From IMG/VR virus record IMGVR_UViG_3300025897_000009: 64,000 bases of DNA. One strand, written 5' to 3'. Below, one piece after another: positions 5,807-27,864 of the stretch. Position 1 is the first letter of the stretch; every line of letters starts with the position of its first letter. The position numbers and the translations under genes are program-made. Under the pieces are notes generated by a model, which made no database searches, was not told the origin of the DNA, and saw nothing but the letters and a program-made list of their open reading frames with translations. The DNA is from a virus.

Positions 5807-6252
5807 TAAGCACCTGCCATAAACTTTCGCCACTCAATAATGTTCTTAATAGATTGATGTCTCCATTTTAGCATATCAATAATTTCAGAAATGTATTCTA
5901 TAGTAATCTTGGCAATGTCTAATTTGTTTTTCATAATTTGCAAATCTTTATCACTTTCGAAGAAGTAATTGAAATCACCTTTCATAATCTTAAGTCCATT
6001 GAAAGGATCATAATCCCAACCAAGATCTTCGATCTCTGATTGTGATAGTTTGCCATTGAACCATAACCACTTGTTCTTAAGCAGTTCTTTGTATTTCAAA
6101 TTCAATTTTTTCTCAACCAACTTCCAGTCAGTTAAGTAGTCAGAGTATTTAGCATGAAGTTTAGGAACTTCTAGTGTAGTTGCGTCTAACTCAATATCAT
6201 TGATGGAACATTCCTCTGTCCATTCTATCTTGATCTGTTCTAAAGATTTCAT
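5806..6252 (-). CDS. uvsY: Recombination mediator UvsY
   Basis: VPKLHAKY...RHQSIKNIIEWRKFMAG; one gene upstream of uvsW. Confidence 0.9.
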   Translation of the reverse strand: MKSLEQIKIEWTEECSINDIELDATTLEVPKLHAKYSDYLTDWKLVEKKLNLKYKELLKNKWLWFNGKLSQSEIEDLGWDYDPFNGLKIMKGDFNYFFESDKDLQIMKNKLDIAKITIEYISEIIDMLKWRHQSIKNIIEWRKFMAGA

Positions 6253-7558
6253 GTATACCTTTGTATTTAATATGTTTACAATCCATGTCTTTTATCCATG
6301 GACCACCTCTTGTGTAGTGAACAGCACCAGCATTATAAAATTCTGATTCTTCACTATAACCCTCACACCAATTCCATCTATCTGGGATAGCACCAATCTT
6401 ATTAGCATTAGTCCATTGGAACTGATGTAAGTATTGACCAGACTCAGTATTAATGACCTCTGGTGTCAATTTTTTACAGTCTTCATGAGCATTGTTAAAC
6501 ACCATAAGACTAGACCATAACTTTTTAGGATACCAAACATCCTTTTCGTTTCCTAGTTTTTGTCTATACCCTTTATCACTGAAGTCGTGTTTAACACAGG
6601 CAACTGCCTCGTCATGATTGACCGACATCAGTAAAGGACTAGGATCTTCTAAGAAGATAAAGTCATCGTCTACAAATACACTAATGCCTTCATAATTTTG
6701 AAGATATGGTATAAGGAAGCGACTGTATGTAAACTCAGTTGATTGATTGGCATACTCTCTTGTATACTCTGGTATCTTAGATATGTCTAGATACTTAATG
6801 GTAAAGGGATGCGTCCACTTTTCAATAGATCTTTCACATGCTTTAGTTGCCTCGCCATGTCTAGAATCATATCCTATGTATAAAGTGGGTTTGTTTTCAA
6901 ACATGGGTCTTATAAGGTCATAATGAGCATCATAGTTGACTTGATAATTTATGGTCTGAAAACACTCCAAATTACCCCATCCTGCCCCATTTACTATCAA
7001 ATCCAGTTGAAAATCTCCCACTTTATGTACATGATTCTGCCAGAAGATATCAATGTACATTTCGAAGTCCAAAGCATCATAATCCCTAAACATCTCATAA
7101 GGATCCCAAACGATACAAGATGGGTTCCAATCTAACCATCGCAGTGAGTTAACTCTTCCTGTTCCAGGATGTATGTGATAATTGAAATTGATTTTAGTTC
7201 GATCAAGGTTATCATAAGTCAAAACACCTTGTGGTGGGTATTCTAAACCATTGTTTTTGATATTGTGAATCAGATAATGCATCTTATTGAAATGATACAT
7301 TCTATTCTGCTCTTCTGTTCTATTTGGTGTGGTAGATCCTATCGTAGTGTATTCATGCTTGTGAGCATAATAGTCTTTAATTCTATGAGTTGTATCTTGA
7401 CCAGAGTTGTTTATTCTTTGATCAATAACTTTAAGAGGAACATGTCGACATGCTCCAGGGAATGCTTCAAAGTACTCTTTTGCCTCTGGCATGCTTTCGC
7501 CTTTGGTTTTCATGGTACCAAAGTGAACACTCTCTCGTGGGTAATCTTCAAATATCAT
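6197..7558 (-). CDS. Two-domain protein: unknown N-terminal domain plus GT-A (GT8-like) glycosyltransferase
   Basis: C-half LYIGYDSR, STEFTYSRFLIPYL, DDD (DxD), YPKKLWSSLMVFN, LHQFQW, HYTRGGPW. Confidence 0.8.
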   Translation of the reverse strand: MIFEDYPRESVHFGTMKTKGESMPEAKEYFEAFPGACRHVPLKVIDQRINNSGQDTTHRIKDYYAHKHEYTTIGSTTPNRTEEQNRMYHFNKMHYLIHNIKNNGLEYPPQGVLTYDNLDRTKINFNYHIHPGTGRVNSLRWLDWNPSCIVWDPYEMFRDYDALDFEMYIDIFWQNHVHKVGDFQLDLIVNGAGWGNLECFQTINYQVNYDAHYDLIRPMFENKPTLYIGYDSRHGEATKACERSIEKWTHPFTIKYLDISKIPEYTREYANQSTEFTYSRFLIPYLQNYEGISVFVDDDFIFLEDPSPLLMSVNHDEAVACVKHDFSDKGYRQKLGNEKDVWYPKKLWSSLMVFNNAHEDCKKLTPEVINTESGQYLHQFQWTNANKIGAIPDRWNWCEGYSEESEFYNAGAVHYTRGGPWIKDMDCKHIKYKGIHEIFRTDQDRMDRGMFHQ

Positions 7559-7584
7559 AATGTAATCCTATAGTTATTCTACTA

Positions 7585-7591
7585 TATTTAG
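7585..7591 (-). promoter_or_regulatory. Late promoter variant CTAAATA
   Basis: tatttag on plus strand, intergenic, upstream of the GT-uvsY-uvsW block. Confidence 0.55.
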
Positions 7592-7610
7592 CAAGTGTTG
7601 TAAAGGTGGT

Positions 7611-8153
7611 TTAAGACTTATCTTCGATTGTAAAGTATGTAAATCTAAAATTAACACTTCCTGACAATACAGCAACATCAGTACTCTCACTGTTCATTTG
7701 AAACCCACCCAAAGCAATAGGGAAAGAGTCATAGAATCTAATGTACCTATTGGGGTTGTTCTTATTCGTGTTGATCACTAATGTAATATCTTCATACTGT
7801 TCTAGATCAGAATTTGTGCCAGTGTAAGCATTAGTCGATGTTGATGTAGTTCCTGTGAGGTTCTTAAATGTTTCAGGATCATTCGCAGGAGTAATTGCTC
7901 GCATCCAGTCATAGACTTCTTTATAGTTTGCCATGTCCTCATCAATAAGATAAGTGACACTGAGATCCATAAATGTAATCTTATCTCCTGGATAGTATGC
8001 ATTCACACCGATGTTAGTAGCAAAGATTGCCTCGGAAAAACTAATATCAGGAACTGTGACTGATGTACAAAAGAATTCTACATTAGGCAGTCTGGGTATC
8101 AGCAGTCTAAATGCAGTTGGATGTAAGAATGATTTGTTTGTTGGTGTTGCCAT
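7611..8153 (-). CDS. gp3: Tail completion / tube terminator protein
   Basis: FLHPTAFRLLIPRLPNVEFFC...PGDK...DEDMANYKEVYDWM; follows gp23. Confidence 0.85.
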   Translation of the reverse strand: MATPTNKSFLHPTAFRLLIPRLPNVEFFCTSVTVPDISFSEAIFATNIGVNAYYPGDKITFMDLSVTYLIDEDMANYKEVYDWMRAITPANDPETFKNLTGTTSTSTNAYTGTNSDLEQYEDITLVINTNKNNPNRYIRFYDSFPIALGGFQMNSESTDVAVLSGSVNFRFTYFTIEDKS

Positions 8154-20607: not shown

Positions 20608-21423
20608 TTATCCTATCATATAATCAAGTGGCAACTCATAGTTGTTTCTTGATTCTTCTTCTAGTTTTTCAATCTCTTGGTTTGCTTCTTCTAGTATTCT
20701 AGTTGAGTTTAAAGTGACACCACCAGGAAGTGCTATTCCTTCAAACTTAGATAAGTTTTGACCCCATTGTCTTTTAACTAAAGCAGTCGCATACTTCTTC
20801 AACCATATATCATTATAGATATCGGTAAAGGTTGATGGATCTACTTTGCGATAACATTCAATAAGAAAGTATTCTCCAGCACTTACTCTGGCATTATCCA
20901 TATCAAGATACAATCTGTTTTGATGTTTGTTGAATCTGATAGGAACATTACCTACAAGTGTCATGTCTAGTAAGTTTAAGTGTTGCTGTAATTGTTCGTA
21001 ATAAAGGACAGAAGTGGACTGTAGATCGTACAAGTCATTCAATCGTAATTGATACCTGATATCAAACATATCCATAGAGTTTCTGTCATTGAAAGGGAAT
21101 ATTCTAAGTACTGATAATACAGACTCTGGCATTACAAGATAATTCTTTTGTTCACCAAAGGTTTGACCTGAGTAATCGTGCGTTCCAGTTGTGGATGCAT
21201 CTTGAGAAGCATCAGTCTCAAATGTGTTTAACCAAGTTGAATCAACTTGATGTTTGAGGTAAGTTCTTATTGCACCATCGTAATGATATTCTGCGAAGTA
21301 CTGTAGAGCATCATCAATTCTATCATCGAACTGATCATCGTCCACATTGATTTCTACAACTGGGAAACCCAATTGTCTCTTAATAAAAGATTTAAAGGTT
21401 GCTCTTGAGTTAGGTGCTGCCAT
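20608..21423 (-). CDS. gp13: Neck protein
   Basis: LGFPVVEINVDDDQ, YHYDG, WLKKYATALVKRQWGQNLSKF, LPGGVTLN. Confidence 0.94.
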   Translation of the reverse strand: MAAPNSRATFKSFIKRQLGFPVVEINVDDDQFDDRIDDALQYFAEYHYDGAIRTYLKHQVDSTWLNTFETDASQDASTTGTHDYSGQTFGEQKNYLVMPESVLSVLRIFPFNDRNSMDMFDIRYQLRLNDLYDLQSTSVLYYEQLQQHLNLLDMTLVGNVPIRFNKHQNRLYLDMDNARVSAGEYFLIECYRKVDPSTFTDIYNDIWLKKYATALVKRQWGQNLSKFEGIALPGGVTLNSTRILEEANQEIEKLEEESRNNYELPLDYMIG

Positions 21424-21720: not shown

Positions 21721-22428
21721 TTATATGATAGGATTCCCTGTAAGAGGGTCTATTTTGAACTCATATTCATTTGCAGGTACTATCGAAGGGGTCTCTTCAC
21801 CAATTTTCATTTTGTTTATTGCGTGCCAATCAACATTGAAAGATATAGAGTATCTTCTCTTGTCAGTGAAGTTTGGTTCTACCATGTGCATTGCACCTGA
21901 TGGGAATAGAATGAGCATACCTGTTTTGGGTCTTACACGAAAATCAGTTCGAGATCTATCATTATAGAAAGGCATATCGTTTACATATTTTGGATTTGAA
22001 TCTATGAATTGTATATCACCCTCATCTCCATCAGCATGTATGTAAAAAACTCCACTATACCAACAACCATTGTGTAAGTGAGGAGCATTCCATGCATGTT
22101 TATCATTTATGTTGCCCCAACTGTTTCCCATTCTCTGGATAAAGTTTCTCCCACCACCATAGTAAGGTATAACTTCTTCTTCAAATAGTCTATTGATTCT
22201 GTTAAACAGTTTTACAAATGTTGGATGACTATCTATACCATCATTAGATTGCCAACCAGTGTATTGGTTTGAAACTTTACGACCCACAGGATCTTTCTTA
22301 CGCATATCATCCATTGTTTCTTTTAACTCTAGCATGTAATCTGAATCTACACCTTGTCTAGGATGTAATTCTGGGTTGAGTAAATCCCTAAAGAACAATG
22401 GTGTAGGGAATAATAGTTTAACTGACAT
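21721..22428 (-). CDS. Putative 2OG-Fe(II) oxygenase (TIGR02466-like)
   Basis: LFPTP start, WGNIN, PHLH..YSGVFYI, LILFPS..HMVEPN..RYSISFN. Confidence 0.85.
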   Translation of the reverse strand: MSVKLLFPTPLFFRDLLNPELHPRQGVDSDYMLELKETMDDMRKKDPVGRKVSNQYTGWQSNDGIDSHPTFVKLFNRINRLFEEEVIPYYGGGRNFIQRMGNSWGNINDKHAWNAPHLHNGCWYSGVFYIHADGDEGDIQFIDSNPKYVNDMPFYNDRSRTDFRVRPKTGMLILFPSGAMHMVEPNFTDKRRYSISFNVDWHAINKMKIGEETPSIVPANEYEFKIDPLTGNPII

Positions 22429-23174
22429 TATTTAAAGTCCTTTTTTTGCCACATGTATTTTCTATATGAACCTGTTATACCATATTTAGATAACTTTCCA
22501 TCATGATCTTCTCGATGTCTCGAGTATTCTTCCATGTTAGGGTTCTTCCAATAGTCTGCGTAATCTACTCGAGTAGATGATGTCCAACTTTCCCTCTTAA
22601 AAGGAAACAACTGAACGATAGGAGTGCCTTCTGGTATTGTAAAAGTCTTTCGCACTTTAGGATACATAATCAACTGAGCATTAAGATCACCACCCTTAAA
22701 CTTGTCTGTATCTATAATGCCTTGCCATGCTGAAATGTATTCATTCGCGAACAAAAATGGATCTAAGTACAGAGTCGAGTACCCATCAGGAGTTCTTACT
22801 GAAAAAGGCATGTTCATTTTGATTGCATCATTTTGAACTCCAGGCATCATCGCAAACTGCCTAAAAGGATGAGACTGTGATTCCCAAACTTCATGATGAG
22901 GGCATTTCATTTCAAATGAAGTTTCTTTTTCCGCAATCTCGTCACCATAATATTGAACAATCATATCTCTAACTGCTACAACATAATACCCTGTCGTAAG
23001 TATATCTTGCATAGCAGGACAAGATCTAATAGTAGATCCTGTACCATGACCATCACCCATGTTTTCTACGATCTTAGTTTTTTTCCACCAATCAGGTTGA
23101 AAATCTTTAGCAGGTATTGCTTCAAAATCTTTCTTAACTCTTTCGTCAAATGTAACAAATTCTATATGTGGCAT
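22428..23174 (-). CDS. Conserved phage protein of unknown function, seen next to oxygenases
   Basis: PDWWKK, TIRSCPAMQDILTTGY, TPDGYS, GIIDTD, GTPIVQLFPFKRESW motifs. Confidence 0.6.
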   Translation of the reverse strand: MPHIEFVTFDERVKKDFEAIPAKDFQPDWWKKTKIVENMGDGHGTGSTIRSCPAMQDILTTGYYVVAVRDMIVQYYGDEIAEKETSFEMKCPHHEVWESQSHPFRQFAMMPGVQNDAIKMNMPFSVRTPDGYSTLYLDPFLFANEYISAWQGIIDTDKFKGGDLNAQLIMYPKVRKTFTIPEGTPIVQLFPFKRESWTSSTRVDYADYWKNPNMEEYSRHREDHDGKLSKYGITGSYRKYMWQKKDFK

Positions 23175-23832: not shown

Positions 23833-24390
23833 TTATTTTTCCTCGTCGCTGGCAGTAAGGAATTCTGGCATCACAGGTCTGAGCGATGCCTTTTGGTAGT
23901 AATCAAAATCTTGTAATTGATCTTCAGGTGCAGCAATAATTTGATTTTTGAGTTCTTCAAAAATTAGGTATGCTTGATCATAAAACTCTAAGCATCTTCT
24001 AGCATCAGATCTAAATGGATGATTAGATCCTTCTCTACCTGCCACATTTGCTTCTACAATGTCACCAAACCTCAATCGATTACACATCTCTCTTACATTC
24101 TCTGCAGTAAAGTGCCACAAATCATCTGCATATTGTTGTTGTAAACTCACACCCTCTGGTGGTTCAGCATTCAACACATATTTTTCTATAGCATCAATCT
24201 CATCATTAGTCAGATCTGTGATTACTTCTTCGTCATCTTTCTTAATGATTTTAATTTTTTGATCATCATAGATAATGTAATCATACTCAAATCCTAGAGT
24301 GGGTGCATCTGTTTGTTCATACTCCCATCGGAGTCCTTTCTCATTTCTGAGTTTAAGGGAATTGTCTTGTTGGTAAATAAATGCGATCAT
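23833..24390 (-). CDS. Hypothetical protein (possible fibre assembly chaperone)
   Basis: Acidic 185-aa ORF with SD and CTAAATA promoter at 24423-24429; first gene after mirror-repeat protein 1. Confidence 0.5.
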   Translation of the reverse strand: MIAFIYQQDNSLKLRNEKGLRWEYEQTDAPTLGFEYDYIIYDDQKIKIIKKDDEEVITDLTNDEIDAIEKYVLNAEPPEGVSLQQQYADDLWHFTAENVREMCNRLRFGDIVEANVAGREGSNHPFRSDARRCLEFYDQAYLIFEELKNQIIAAPEDQLQDFDYYQKASLRPVMPEFLTASDEEK

Positions 24391-24454
24391 AATAAAGTTC
24401 TCCTGTACAGTCTATTGTACTATATTTAGTACAAATCGACTAGTGGATTTCAGA

Positions 24455-25696
24455 TTAAGTAATTGGCGTTGCTGGCCAATCAGTTGTACCATCCCATCTT
24501 TGAACTATCCTTTGTGCAGGATAAGGTTGTTGGAAAGGATATGGTGCTTGCACTATCGTTTGAGCAGGGTATGGCTGCTGGAAAGGATATGGTGTTTGAT
24601 AACCTTGTTGATACCCATATGGTTGTTGGAATGGATAAGGTGCATTGTAGTTCTGCTGGTATCCATAAGGTTGCTGGAATGGATAAGGTGCATTGTAGTT
24701 CTGCTGGTATCCATATGGTTGTTGGAATGGATATGGTGCATTGTAACCTTGTTGGAATCCATAAGGTTGCTGGAATGGATATGGTGCATTGTAACCTTGT
24801 TGGAATCCATATGGTTGTTGGAATGAATATGGAGCATTATAATTTTGCTGATACCCATAAGGTTGTTGGAATCCATATGGTTGCTGAAATGCTTGTTGAA
24901 AAGGATAAGGTTGTTGGAATGCATAAGGTTGCTGAAATGCTTGCTGAAAAGTATAAGGTTGCTGGTAAACATAATTCTGCTGAAAAGGTTGCTGGAATGG
25001 ATAAGGTTGCTGAACATTCCCCTTTGGTCCAGGTATTGGAGTTGTTCCAGTTGCTGGTGTAGTTGCAGGTCTTGCTCCAGGTGTGGGTCTCACACCAGTT
25101 GCTGGTGTAGTTGCAGGTCTCACACCATTAGCAGGTCTCACACCAGTTACAGATGAAGTTGCAGGTCTTACTCCATTAGCAGGTCTCACACCACTCGCTG
25201 GTCTTTGTGCTGGATAAGTACCACTAGCAGGTCTCACACCACTAGCAGGTCTTACTGCTGGGTATGTACCTGTAGCAGGTCTCACACCAGTCGCAGGTCT
25301 TACTGCTGGGTATGTACCTGTAGCAGGTCTTGGTCCAGAAGCAGGTCTTTGTGCTGGATAGGTTCCAGTTGCTGGTCTTGGTCCACTTGCAGGTCTCTGA
25401 GCAGGATAAGTTCCAGTTGCTGGTCTTGGTCCAGTAGCAGGTCTTTGTGCTGGAGTTTGACCTGTAGCAGGTCTAGTAGCAGTATAATTCTGTTGTGCTG
25501 GAGTTTGACCAGTCGCAGGTCTTGTAGAAGTATAATTCTGCTGAGCAGGGAATTGACCAGAAGATTTTATCCATCCATTTGGAGTTTTAGTATAAATTCC
25601 TTCGACAGCAGAAAACTCTGCTGGTCCTGTTTTTACCCATGCCCCACTAGTTGATGACCAACCTGTGGGAGTTTTTACCTGCGAACTCTTTGCCAT
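24455..25696 (-). CDS. Mirror-repeat protein 1 (RPAxG arm / PYxFQQ arm), putative long beta-hairpin virion appendage
   Basis: 48-aa Trp-containing head, 170-aa RPAxG arm, TPIPGPKGNVQQ turn, 170-aa PYxFQQ arm, 13-aa tail; CTAAATA promoter at 25706-25712. Confidence 0.85.
   Translation of the reverse strand: MAKSSQVKTPTGWSSTSGAWVKTGPAEFSAVEGIYTKTPNGWIKSSGQFPAQQNYTSTRPATGQTPAQQNYTATRPATGQTPAQRPATGPRPATGTYPAQRPASGPRPATGTYPAQRPASGPRPATGTYPAVRPATGVRPATGTYPAVRPASGVRPASGTYPAQRPASGVRPANGVRPATSSVTGVRPANGVRPATTPATGVRPTPGARPATTPATGTTPIPGPKGNVQQPYPFQQPFQQNYVYQQPYTFQQAFQQPYAFQQPYPFQQAFQQPYGFQQPYGYQQNYNAPYSFQQPYGFQQGYNAPYPFQQPYGFQQGYNAPYPFQQPYGYQQNYNAPYPFQQPYGYQQNYNAPYPFQQPYGYQQGYQTPYPFQQPYPAQTIVQAPYPFQQPYPAQRIVQRWDGTTDWPATPIT
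24497..25006 (-). repeat. Coding tandem repeat, 48-bp period (PYxFQQ-PYGxQQ-xYNA)
   Basis: Near-identical 48-nt units visible in the DNA. Confidence 0.9.
25043..25552 (-). repeat. Coding tandem repeat, 48-bp period (RPAxGx-RPAxGT-YPAx)
   Basis: Recurring gcaggtct units in the DNA; 16-aa period. Confidence 0.9.
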
Positions 25697-25735
25697 AATT
25701 GCCTATATTTAGTTTGGTTCTAAGAACCTATTTTA

Positions 25736-27634
25736 TTATGCGTAAACAATCCATACATCACCGACTGCACCATCTCCTGATGTAGGAGCAGCAGAGTGAA
25801 TAAATGTATTTCTTAAAGCACCATCAGAACTACCAATTGTAGTAAATGATGTAGTTGCTTTTCCAGTTAAGGTAGATGTTCCTGCGATTGTAACATTATT
25901 AGGTAAACCAATTGTTACAGTAGCATTTTCTGAACCAGAACCTGATATTTCAATCTCATTAGTTGTACCTGAGATACCACCAACATAATTACCTGTTGTA
26001 TCTGTACCTAATGCTACACTGTTAGCAGCAATAGTTGCCGCAATAGTAAGGTTTCCAGTTCCATCAAAAGAACCAGAACCTGTAACATCACCACTTAAAC
26101 CTATTGTTCTAGAAGTTTCTAAAGCAGTAGCAGTAGCAGCATTACCAGATGTATCCTGATTACCTGCAGTGTTAACTCCAGGCAAGTTGATATTAGCAGT
26201 ACCATCAAATGATACTCCACCAATAGTTCTTGCAGTTTCTAAAGCAGTTGCAGAGTCAGCATTACCTGTAACATCACCTGTTAATGCTCCTTCAAAAGTA
26301 GCAGCAACAAATGTTTCTGAACCAACTGACCATTTGTCATTTGTTTCGTCCCAAAGAAGTGTCTTAGAGGCAGAACCACCACGAGTCACACTGATACCAG
26401 TGTCTTCTGTTGGAGATCCTGAAGTAAAGTTACTATTTAATGCGATAATGTTATCAGCAAGTGAAATAGTTTCTGAGTTAACTGTTGTAGTTGTACCTGA
26501 AACTGTAAGATCACCTGTTACATTCAATGAATCATTAACTGTTACAACACCTGTACCATTTGCTGTTAGTGTTAAGTTGGTGTCTGTACTTCTTGATTCG
26601 ATTGCGTTAACATCGATTGAATTTGAAAATTCGATTGCATTTCCGTCAGATGAAGATATAGCATTTGATGCTTGTATCTGCATAGGTGCTTTAATTTGTA
26701 TATTACCTGTTCCAGTTGCATCTAATTCGATATCACCTGAACCTGAAGTTTGTACTGATACATTTTGGTCACTATCTGCAGAAACAGTAATTGTACCTGA
26801 ATTATCAGATACCACTTGTTGTCCGTTAACATATAAAGATCCTGGACCAACATAGATATCTCTCCATTGTTTTGTAGAAGAACCTAAGTCGTATGTAACA
26901 TCAGTATCAGGTATGATGCTTCCATCAAAATCTGATAGATGAGTTGTTACATCGCTGTCACCATATTGTGCAGCACCAGCAACTGTTAGGGAGTTTGCAG
27001 CATCATCATAAGTAAGAGTGATTCCTGTTCCTGCAGTTAAAAGTGCATTAACACGATCATCTACTCGTTCACTTGTATGATAAAGGTTTGTTGAACCTTC
27101 TGCCACATCATCAGTATCTTGTGCATCTACATATGCTTTGATAGATTCGGAAGATGCTAAAGTTGTTGCACTTGCACCTACCATAGTGTCTGAATCTAAT
27201 ATTGCTGATCCTGACACTCCTGTATTTAATACAGGACTTGTTAGTGTTTTGTTTGTTAAAGTTTGGGCAGTAGAAAGGTCTGTTACAACTGATGTATCAA
27301 TTTCGATATCATCTGCGTTGACTGTAATACCATTTCCTGCACCAACATTTACAGTTGGAGTACCTGAAGTTCCACCACCTGATAAACCATCTCCTGCTGT
27401 AACACCTTCGATGTCACCAGTGAGGTCTGCGTCAATTGTTAAGGAACCTGCGGAGTCGTCATATGTTGCTGTGATGTTAGTACCACCGACAACCATTGCT
27501 CCTACAATGTCTTGTGTTGCTTCTGTATTAGAAGAACCCAATGCTGCAGCAGTAATTTCACCACTGCTGTTTATTACTTCAGTTGTTCCTACATTAAGAC
27601 CATTCTTAACTACAAAGTTCTTTTGCGTTGCCAT
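25736..27634 (-). CDS. Tail fibre-like structural protein
   Basis: T/S/G/D-rich; QTLTNKTLTSP, YDLGSSTKQWRDIYV, GDLTVSGTTTTVNS, ATALETARTI repeats; C-terminal APTSGDGAVGDVWIVY. Confidence 0.8.
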   Translation of the reverse strand: MATQKNFVVKNGLNVGTTEVINSSGEITAAALGSSNTEATQDIVGAMVVGGTNITATYDDSAGSLTIDADLTGDIEGVTAGDGLSGGGTSGTPTVNVGAGNGITVNADDIEIDTSVVTDLSTAQTLTNKTLTSPVLNTGVSGSAILDSDTMVGASATTLASSESIKAYVDAQDTDDVAEGSTNLYHTSERVDDRVNALLTAGTGITLTYDDAANSLTVAGAAQYGDSDVTTHLSDFDGSIIPDTDVTYDLGSSTKQWRDIYVGPGSLYVNGQQVVSDNSGTITVSADSDQNVSVQTSGSGDIELDATGTGNIQIKAPMQIQASNAISSSDGNAIEFSNSIDVNAIESRSTDTNLTLTANGTGVVTVNDSLNVTGDLTVSGTTTTVNSETISLADNIIALNSNFTSGSPTEDTGISVTRGGSASKTLLWDETNDKWSVGSETFVAATFEGALTGDVTGNADSATALETARTIGGVSFDGTANINLPGVNTAGNQDTSGNAATATALETSRTIGLSGDVTGSGSFDGTGNLTIAATIAANSVALGTDTTGNYVGGISGTTNEIEISGSGSENATVTIGLPNNVTIAGTSTLTGKATTSFTTIGSSDGALRNTFIHSAAPTSGDGAVGDVWIVYA

Positions 27635-27864
27635 TAGTATGTACCCCCATTAATCGTCGCATTGTCGATTGTTTTAGCAGTACCACCAGAAAGGAATGTT
27701 CCTACTGCAGTGTCACTGTAGTAAGTATTTACTGAACCTTCTGAAAGGTTATCTGTTGTTAGTTCTGAAATAGCAGTTGCCTGTAGTTTCCCCGATGAGT
27801 TTATAATCTCCGTGGAACCTACAGTCAAACCTGCTAAGATAACTAAATTCTTTTGAGTTGCCAT
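27634..27864 (-). CDS. Small fibre-associated protein, paralog of the next gene's N-terminus
   Basis: MATQKNLV..GLTVGSTEIINSSG vs MATQKNFV..GLNVGTTEVINSSG; C-terminal NGGTY. Confidence 0.7.
   Translation of the reverse strand: MATQKNLVILAGLTVGSTEIINSSGKLQATAISELTTDNLSEGSVNTYYSDTAVGTFLSGGTAKTIDNATINGGTY

Follow-up and report, generated by a model that had tools for sequence, protein, structure and literature searches.

Two unlike repeat arms that mirror each other unit for unit in a protein of a marine T4-like myophage: a proposed fold-back two-stranded fibre

The open reading frame (ORF) at positions 24455-25696, minus strand, of the viral record IMGVR_UViG_3300025897_000009 encodes a 413-residue protein in which two long arms, built from unlike repeats, mirror each other unit for unit. 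The window analyzed here is a stretch of 64,000 nucleotides (nt) that forms part of a T4-like myophage genome, and all positions refer to this whole stretch. With moderate confidence, we propose that the protein belongs to the late structural proteins of a marine T4-like myophage and folds into a fold-back, two-stranded fibre. It consists of a non-repeat N-terminal module, an N-arm of R-type units, a short turn, a C-arm of Y-type units and a C-terminal tail (Table 1). The protein has a net charge of +23, contains no Cys, Leu or His, and is composed of 17% Pro, 15% Gln and 9% Gly; its 72 prolines are spread over both arms.

A script reproduced the parse put forward in the earlier note: the N-arm reads 10,6,10,6,4,(6,6,4)x8,6 and the C-arm, which like the N-arm is 170 residues long, is its exact reverse, centred on P224-K225. 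All facing pairs claimed there were recovered as well. YPAQ faces NYNA three times, YPAV faces GYNA twice, RPAT faces xFQQ three times and RPATGT faces PYPFQQ four times; the sole RPASGT faces the sole PYSFQQ, and the aberrant RPTPGA faces the aberrant NYVYQQ. The facing of Arg with Gln, Gly with Tyr and Ala with Phe is borne out by the counts (R:Q 20, G:Y 19, A:F 16), and A:Y (18) and P:Q (26) are further frequent pairs. The mirror pattern is beyond chance, because the register i+j=449 tops every other in a mutual-information scan of all mirror and all direct registers (1.82 bits at this global maximum; 1.57 bits for the next mirror register and 1.26 bits for the best direct offset). In five close relatives, the same scan placed the optimum at the P-K of a PKG turn.

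At the DNA level, each arm is a separate 48-nt tandem array, and no inverted repeat was found between the arms. The best gapless identity between the N-arm DNA and the reverse complement of the C-arm DNA is 0.347; codon-shuffled sequences average 0.332 and reach at most 0.354. The symmetry therefore resides at the protein level only. Short direct DNA repeats are common to both arms (24510-24525 versus 25203-25218, 25347-25362 and 25395-25410; 24971-24988 versus 25532-25549) and encode YPAQR and P[FA]QQNY; because of them, the sequence hints at a common ancestral unit from which both arrays arose in direct rather than inverted orientation.

Relatives were collected by scanning viral and metagenome contigs and by a profile search of 1.8 billion proteins. 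Eleven additional members of the family, from these contigs, obey the mirror rule (Table 1). For the length comparison, the N-arm was counted from its first residue up to the P of PKG, and the C-arm from the following K to its last residue. The two arms did not vary independently, which would have contradicted the mirror reading of the earlier note: their lengths are either equal or differ by a constant two residues (176/176, 176/176, 160/160, 198/200, 182/184 and 186/188). The difference corresponds to one conserved bulge, a 12-mer opposite a 10-mer, which may be a β-bulge. In L004, L014 and L015, this C-arm 12-mer opposite an N-arm 10-mer is the sole break in an otherwise gapless mirror alignment, and it leaves the proline parity described below intact. 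A pair-score matrix learnt solely from the window protein aligned the arms of L004, L014 and L016 mirror-wise and nearly without gaps, with scores of 212, 205 and 136, versus 17-24 for parallel alignment and 12-22 for shuffled sequence. The best-scoring partner of each N-arm was its own C-arm (6/6 rows and 6/6 columns).

Insertions, deletions and unit replacements are likewise mirror-placed in both arms. L004 and L015, which are ∼98% identical, differ by one 16-residue deletion per arm. The two deletions are ∼150 codons apart, lie at mirror positions within the ambiguity of the repeat alignment and remove exactly three units that face each other, with only 6 substitutions between them. L003 and L012 are distinguished by the same kind of paired deletion. 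Comparison of the window gene with that of L003 revealed 28 nt differences, 25 of which fall in facing patches (codons 185-208 and 240-251), in a locus whose 3-kb flanks differ by 0.2-0.5%; in both arms the changed units of L003 are perfect 48-nt copies of their outer neighbours, which recreates a unit pairing already present one step further out.

The two unit types can also change sides. In L014, an N-arm 16-mer carrying a Y-type hexamer faces a C-arm 16-mer carrying an R-type hexamer in exact register. Blocks alternate in L016 and L017, in which an N-arm Y-type run of 6,6,4,6,6 faces a C-arm R-type run of 6,6,4,6,6 and the pairing is gapless over ∼120 residues (i+j=436). Over eight proteins, 100 of the 111 RPxxGx hexamers face xYx[FY]QQ exactly, and nine more are offset solely by the 2-residue bulge. 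The facing positions N4 and C3 co-vary (T:P, S:S or S:G, N:G or N:A, and P:T in L014); for L014, none of 5000 shuffles reached the observed association. Unit lengths match in the more divergent proteins as well: tetramers at the start of the L010 N-arm face tetramers at the end of its C-arm and 12-mers face 12-mers near its centre, and in P0039 14-mers lie opposite 14-mers. We regard antiparallel pairing of the two arms as very probable.

Residues within each arm follow a strict alternation. In the N-arm of the window protein, all 33 prolines occupy even positions and all 19 arginines and all 19 glycines odd ones; in the C-arm, 31 of 31 prolines are at odd positions, and 32 of 32 tyrosines and 17 of 17 phenylalanines at even ones. 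Because the register sum of 449 is odd, the Pro-bearing positions of one arm face those of the other, and by this sequence test all 64 arm prolines fall into one of the two alternating classes of facing pairs. One-parity prolines were also found in each arm of L004 (43/43 and 29/29), L010 (35/35 and 36/36), L016 (26/26 and 23/23) and L014, and P0039 has a single exception among its 13 C-arm prolines; in all five proteins the proline class lies opposite the proline class. All unit lengths are even (4, 6, 8, 10, 12, 14, 16), and where R-type and Y-type blocks switch within an arm, a one- or five-residue junction restores the proline parity.

A structural period of two residues is the signature of a β-strand; for polyproline II (PPII) or collagen-like pairing, periods divisible by three would be expected. 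Along a ribbon of two antiparallel strands, hydrogen-bonded facing pairs alternate with non-hydrogen-bonded ones; all inter-strand hydrogen bonds can form here because every proline lies in one pair class. Prolines so placed would also do away with outward NH groups, a known negative design against edge-to-edge sheet growth, and the placement of Gly under an aromatic ring corresponds to the idea of ‘aromatic rescue of glycine’. The strict 2-residue periodicity and the confinement of all prolines to one class thus speak for the antiparallel β-ribbon that the earlier note had suggested; structure prediction by AlphaFold2, which drew no strands in the arms, lent it no support. We consider a β-ribbon the probable conformation. 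At 0.33-0.34 nm per residue, 176 pairs would give a length of at most 58-60 nm. A collagen-like fibre or PPII bundle was considered and rejected, as Gly recurs every 6 or 16 residues, the periodicity is strictly 2 and the units comprise 4, 6 or 10 residues.

In the fold that we propose, the chain would reverse at the invariant P-K-G turn, which is kept in all close relatives and in L016 and L017. The Arg/Pro/Ala/Thr/Gly N-arm would run antiparallel to the Tyr/Phe/Gln/Pro C-arm, each hexamer, tetramer or 10-mer lying against a unit of equal length, to form a rod of ∼176 residue pairs and at most ∼58 nm. Alternate pairs (R:Q, A:F/Y and G:Y) would carry the inter-strand hydrogen bonds, with small residues opposite aromatic rings and Arg stacked between them. 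The other set of pairs would hold every proline at outward-pointing, non-hydrogen-bonded sites, where the prolines would also block edge-to-edge aggregation of the Q/N/Y-rich sequence. The N-terminal KTPxGW module, proposed as the base or anchor of the rod, would be adjoined by the Trp-rich C-terminal tail at the base of the hairpin; together they would probably fasten the rod to the virion, perhaps at the neck, the site of T4 fibritin. Beyond this single protein, we tentatively suggest a sequence-coded pairing rule between two unlike β-strand alphabets (RPxxGx : PYx[FY]QQ) that would set the register over ∼176 pairs and work in cis, in trans (in split forms) and with either alphabet on either strand; we give this generalization slightly less than an even chance.

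In some relatives, the same stalk would present a hypervariable domain at its tip. The domain inserted at the turn comprises ∼125 residues in L016 and L017 and ∼330 residues in P0039. The arms of L016 and L017 are 96-98% identical and their tips 46%, and such a combination of conserved shaft and variable tip resembles the usual pattern of receptor-binding tips. AlphaFold2 yielded an all-β but weak model of an L016 tip construct, with a predicted local distance difference test (pLDDT) score of 40. Members of the L016/L017/P0039 subfamily also have an N-terminal xDIYIN, a C-terminal tail of ∼48 residues, mosaic arms of R-type and Y-type units and a short PKG mini-hairpin. At the tip of the window protein there is a 12-residue turn only, without a globular domain, and the working surface of the whisker would then be the strongly basic rod itself. 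Because a tip domain is lacking and the net charge is +23, we take the window protein to be a bare basic whisker rather than a specific receptor-binding fibre.

Sister proteins that share the 48-residue N-terminal module have one repeat arm, followed by a Gly run and a Hint-type domain or another globular domain. The Hint domain, which follows a G/CF junction, is absent from the window protein and was seen only in the sister proteins, with Pfam matches below the curated cut-offs. A split form is encoded on the 72-kb Tara contig L021 by two genes (6001-7311 and 7315-7977) in the same slot as the fibre gene, upstream of the same cassette (183-residue protein and oxygenase) and of gp13. The first gene encodes the shared N-terminal module, then a 209-residue arm that leads via a Gly run into a Hint-type domain whose G/CF junction is Hedgehog-like. 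The second starts 3 nt after the first and encodes a 220-residue protein with a 204-residue arm and a WDG..WPATPIT tail as in the window protein. The two arms are complementary in antiparallel orientation from end to end (1.72 bits; maximum of block-shuffled sequences, 1.39). Because these complementary arms sit on separate genes, the hairpin also exists cut at its tip into two chains, and the L021 Hint domain may cleave itself off at the former hairpin tip.

Several points weigh against the fold that we propose. Prediction of the full protein by AlphaFold2 from a 6-row alignment gave a mean pLDDT of 34 and a predicted template modelling score of 0.13, with strands only in the N-terminal module and at low confidence; the shallow alignment makes this weak evidence. 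A content of 17% Pro and 9% Gly is unusual for a β-sheet, and we know of no solved core-less two-stranded ribbon of ∼176 pairs; stability of such a ribbon may require oligomerization or chemical modification. The best mirror register of L010 places Arg opposite Arg and Glu opposite Glu in 10-residue units. This like-on-like facing is hard to square with simple lateral pairing and may reflect a different register, a cation or a third chain. For the split pair of L021, the parallel score (1.58) comes close to the antiparallel one. The inner-arm co-changes between the window protein and L003, and between L003 and L012, could each have arisen from a single recombination tract across the turn; for the window protein and L003 this is possible because the patches flank the turn. 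Megablast of the locus and tblastn found no real homologue among cultured phages. Finally, a hairpin within one chain and two chains paired in antiparallel would leave the same covariation, and two-gene split forms are in fact found.

This last point bears on the alternative that survives best, namely that the pairing is real but that the unit is an antiparallel dimer or head-to-tail polymer, or that three hairpins are bundled as a six-stranded needle as at the tip of T4 gp37. Most phage fibres are trimeric, a two-stranded ribbon lacks a hydrophobic core, and the natural split form, with its arms as separate proteins, makes pairing in trans possible. Against such an arrangement stand the invariant PKG, which marks the exact centre of symmetry and is separated from either arm by only 12 residues, and the co-conservation of the N- and C-terminal non-repeat pieces, as if the two met; the absence of His, and with it of HxH metal sites, argues against the gp37 type in particular. 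An oligomeric unit retains an appreciable minority chance, and we consider pairing within one chain likely.

A second alternative accepts the zipped arms but assigns them an extended non-β form, for example PPII-type strands. High proline content and the lack of predicted strands in the arms fit this proposal, and the stalk of antigen I/II (AgI/II) from streptococci shows that a Pro-rich array can pair with an unlike array in a long fold-back stalk (PMC3707005). However, PPII has three residues per turn, and here even units and strict 2-residue parity run over at least 170 residues, with one- or five-residue junctions restoring the proline parity at switches between R-type and Y-type blocks. 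We therefore judge a non-β form to be improbable. Still less credit is due to a disordered low-complexity protein of no fixed register, acting as an Arg/Tyr sticker condensate or as a basic DNA-binding internal protein. The pLDDT of 34, the net charge of +23 and a composition resembling that of prion-like and FUS-like sequences would be expected of it; it leaves equal arms, mirror 16-residue indels, exact strand swaps and perfect proline parity without reason, and the gene sits among fibre, baseplate and neck genes. An origin of the mirror pattern in a palindrome of the nucleic acid, as a DNA or mRNA hairpin, or in an artefact of assembly was considered only because mirror order calls inverted repeats to mind; nothing was found in its favour, and it can be dismissed with near certainty, since the reverse-complement identity of the arms lies at the codon-shuffled level and the same architecture occurs in independent assemblies from many samples with different DNA.

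The gene context is that of a T4-like structural region. For the head protein encoded in the window, identity is 69% with the counterpart in Methylophilales phage Melnitz and 65% with the one in Pelagibacter phage HTVC008M, and we identified the major head protein, scaffold, portal, sheath, terminase, neck proteins of the gp13/14/15 type and baseplate proteins gp5-gp8. The order of transcription is gp5, gp6, gp7-like, gp8, a 2214-residue protein, a fibre-like series and the fibre gene, followed by a 185-residue acidic protein, a PF13640 oxygenase, a 248-residue protein, a PF13759 oxygenase, gp13, gp14, gp15 and terminase. In T4, the gene in the equivalent slot, between gene 12 and gene 13, is wac, which encodes the fibritin neck whisker. 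The earlier note had placed the protein on the virion as a whisker or antenna. This is favoured by the wac-equivalent slot, by the relatives with hypervariable tips and by the N-terminal module, which also starts the single-arm stalk proteins P0004-P0018; display on the virion is what we infer from these. All in all, the protein probably serves as a fibre or whisker of the virion.

Pfam and PHROGs gave no family match for the 413-residue protein or its relatives, and a search for homologous proteins with the whole protein or residues 1-50 returned nothing. An Atlas feature search returned low-scoring viral low-complexity clusters only, and no description of such a protein was found in the literature; a fibre design with complementary arms was thus found in no described protein family.

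Among the neighbours, the 2214-residue protein was examined as a second mirror fibre and rejected because its sequence is not repetitive. A 76-residue ORF (27634-27864) and the 632-residue fibre-like protein have near-identical N-terminal segments of ∼27 residues (MATQKN...), and the start codon of the 632-residue gene overlaps the stop codon of the 76-residue ORF by one base. Exact copies of CTAAATATAG occur three times in the window, all on the minus strand (7582-7591, 24420-24429 and 25703-25712), each 7-31 nt upstream of a start codon (that of ORF 6197-7558, of the gene for the 185-residue protein and of the fibre gene, respectively). The motif is similar to the T4 late promoter TATAAATA; of the latter there are 13 occurrences in the window versus 4.3 expected. 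Late-promoter-like motifs are not enriched overall, with 8 matches at up to one mismatch versus 6.1 expected.

Table 1. Features of the fibre gene and its surroundings, and family members
Feature	Position	Strand	Remarks
Whole fibre gene	24455-25696	-	413 residues
N-terminal non-repeat module, residues 1-48, two KTPxGW motifs	25553-25696	-	invariant alignment columns
N-arm, residues 49-218, R-type units (RPxxGx hexamers, xPAx tetramers, 10-mers)	25043-25552	-	
Turn region, residues 219-230, symmetric around P224-K225	25007-25042	-	
C-arm, residues 231-400, Y-type units (PYx[FY]QQ hexamers, tetramers, 10-mers)	24497-25006	-	
C-terminal tail, residues 401-413, WDGxxxWPxxPIT, plus stop codon	24455-24496	-	conserved in alignments
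CTAAATATAG, T4-late-promoter-like motif, 7 nt 5' of the fibre-gene ATG	25703-25712	-	weak evidence
Upstream 632-residue tail-fibre-like protein	25736-27634	-	phrog_6722 and others
185-residue acidic protein, isoelectric point 4.4	23833-24390	-	co-conserved with fibre gene
2-oxoglutarate (2OG)-Fe(II) oxygenase, PF13640	23176-23832	-	E 4e-8, above curated cut-off
248-residue protein, phrog_7084, no Pfam family	22428-23174		between the two oxygenases
Second 2OG-Fe(II) oxygenase, PF13759	21721-22428	-	last cassette member before gp13
gp13-type neck protein	20608-21423	-	marks wac-equivalent position of fibre gene
L003 = L011			98% identical
L012			381 residues
L004 = L005 = L007 = L013			459 residues
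L015, full-length form of L006			427 residues
L014			435 residues
L016 and L017	L016:2923-4338, L017:3004-4422		472 and 473 residues
L010	L010:375-2054		560 residues; 30% identical, most distant relative
P0039			807 residues; from profile search, alongside a set of sister proteins

The cassette downstream of the fibre gene offers candidates for its assembly and modification. The gene directly after a fibre gene often encodes its assembly chaperone, and the 185-residue protein is a candidate for this role. Its counterpart in L010 is 37% identical and occupies the same position, and counterparts are also present in L004 and L021; like the fibre protein, it is without a homologue in cultured phages. 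The Atlas search gave a lead to a tail-assembly-protein family with a score of only 0.88. The PF13640 oxygenase, which lies beside the cassette in L004, L010 (31% identity) and L021, belongs to the family of prolyl-hydroxylase type. Because of this family assignment and the many prolines of the arms, it is a candidate modifier of the fibre that would hydroxylate prolines, with the caveat that phage gene order is conserved for many reasons. The 248-residue cassette protein has a 288-residue positional counterpart in L021. The L016-type fibre gene is directly followed not by the genes for the 185-residue protein and the oxygenases, as in the window, but by one for a radical SAM/SPASM protein (L016:4483-5430), possibly an alternative peptide-modifying enzyme.

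If the proposed fold is true, the protein would form, to our knowledge, the longest β-hairpin known, and it would embody a fibrous principle beyond coiled coil, collagen, β-helix, triple β-spiral and cross-β. A simple code of two alphabets would specify its register, and compensatory evolution like that of an RNA stem would uphold it. The fold would explain the solubility of a Q/N/Y-rich, prion-like sequence, because prolines would cap both edges of the ribbon, and would supply a design rule for self-limiting β-ribbons and length-programmable rods. The pairing rule, if it holds, would be a protein analogue of base-paired stems that evolves by compensatory change, and would define a new class of fibrous protein and a programmable nanorod. 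The findings also point to a type of virion appendage, so far unrecognized, that abundant marine T4-like phages from the Pelagibacter/OM43-phage group would carry; its tips can be exchanged, it also occurs in split form, and it comes with a conserved cassette of enzymes by which the fibre may be modified post-translationally.

In working principle, the closest system is the stalk of the AgI/II adhesins, reportedly described by Larson et al. 2010 as a fold-back of A-region and P-region. In that stalk, the α-helix of the Ala-rich A-region pairs with the PPII helix of the Pro-rich P-region (PMC3707005). As we propose for the window protein, unlike repeat arrays of one chain pair antiparallel and one-to-one into a long thin stalk, with the chain ends together at the base. 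The AgI/II stalk carries a variable domain at its tip, exactly the layout of the L016, L017 and P0039 relatives; the window protein has no tip domain. In contrast to the α/PPII pairing of AgI/II, both window arms bear prolines with a 2-residue period and are probably paired β to β; AgI/II is attached to the Gram-positive cell wall rather than to a phage, and there is no sequence or Pfam relationship to its A, V and P regions.

The needle domain of T4 gp37, whose structure is said to have been determined by Bartual et al. 2010, likewise sends its chain out to the tip and back, with outgoing and returning β segments side by side. It is a trimer held together at seven iron sites that histidines form (PMC6957217). 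As the window protein lacks His, it has no HxH iron motifs; the needle, moreover, is far shorter and does not consist of two complementary repeat alphabets. T4 fibritin shares the genome slot and the general layout, in which a long thin rod follows a small attachment module at the N terminus. The fibritin rod is ∼53 nm long, compared with at most ∼58 nm predicted for the window protein. Fibritin, however, is a trimeric α-helical coiled coil with a C-terminal foldon, to which no similarity was detected in Pfam or PHROG, and long helices are excluded for the window protein because its 72 prolines are spread over both arms.

Two further systems share single aspects of the design. In SMC and Rad50, the N- and C-terminal halves pair as an antiparallel intramolecular coiled coil over tens of nm and must keep matching lengths in evolution; in contrast to the window protein, these are α-helical heptad coiled coils with ATPase heads and without a unit-by-unit complementary repeat code. 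The chlorovirus PBCV-1 reportedly encodes a prolyl 4-hydroxylase together with viral proline-rich repeat substrates (Eriksson et al. 1999). Here too a virus encodes a PF13640-type oxygenase and its own Pro-rich repeat protein, the oxygenase lying two genes downstream in a conserved cassette, but the link is one of gene neighbourhood alone, and the L016-type relatives have the radical SAM/SPASM gene in that place. Taken together, the window protein is not a member of the AgI/II, gp37 or fibritin families, because the tests that define each of the three gave negative results; its distinguishing feature is the pair of unlike, complementary arms.

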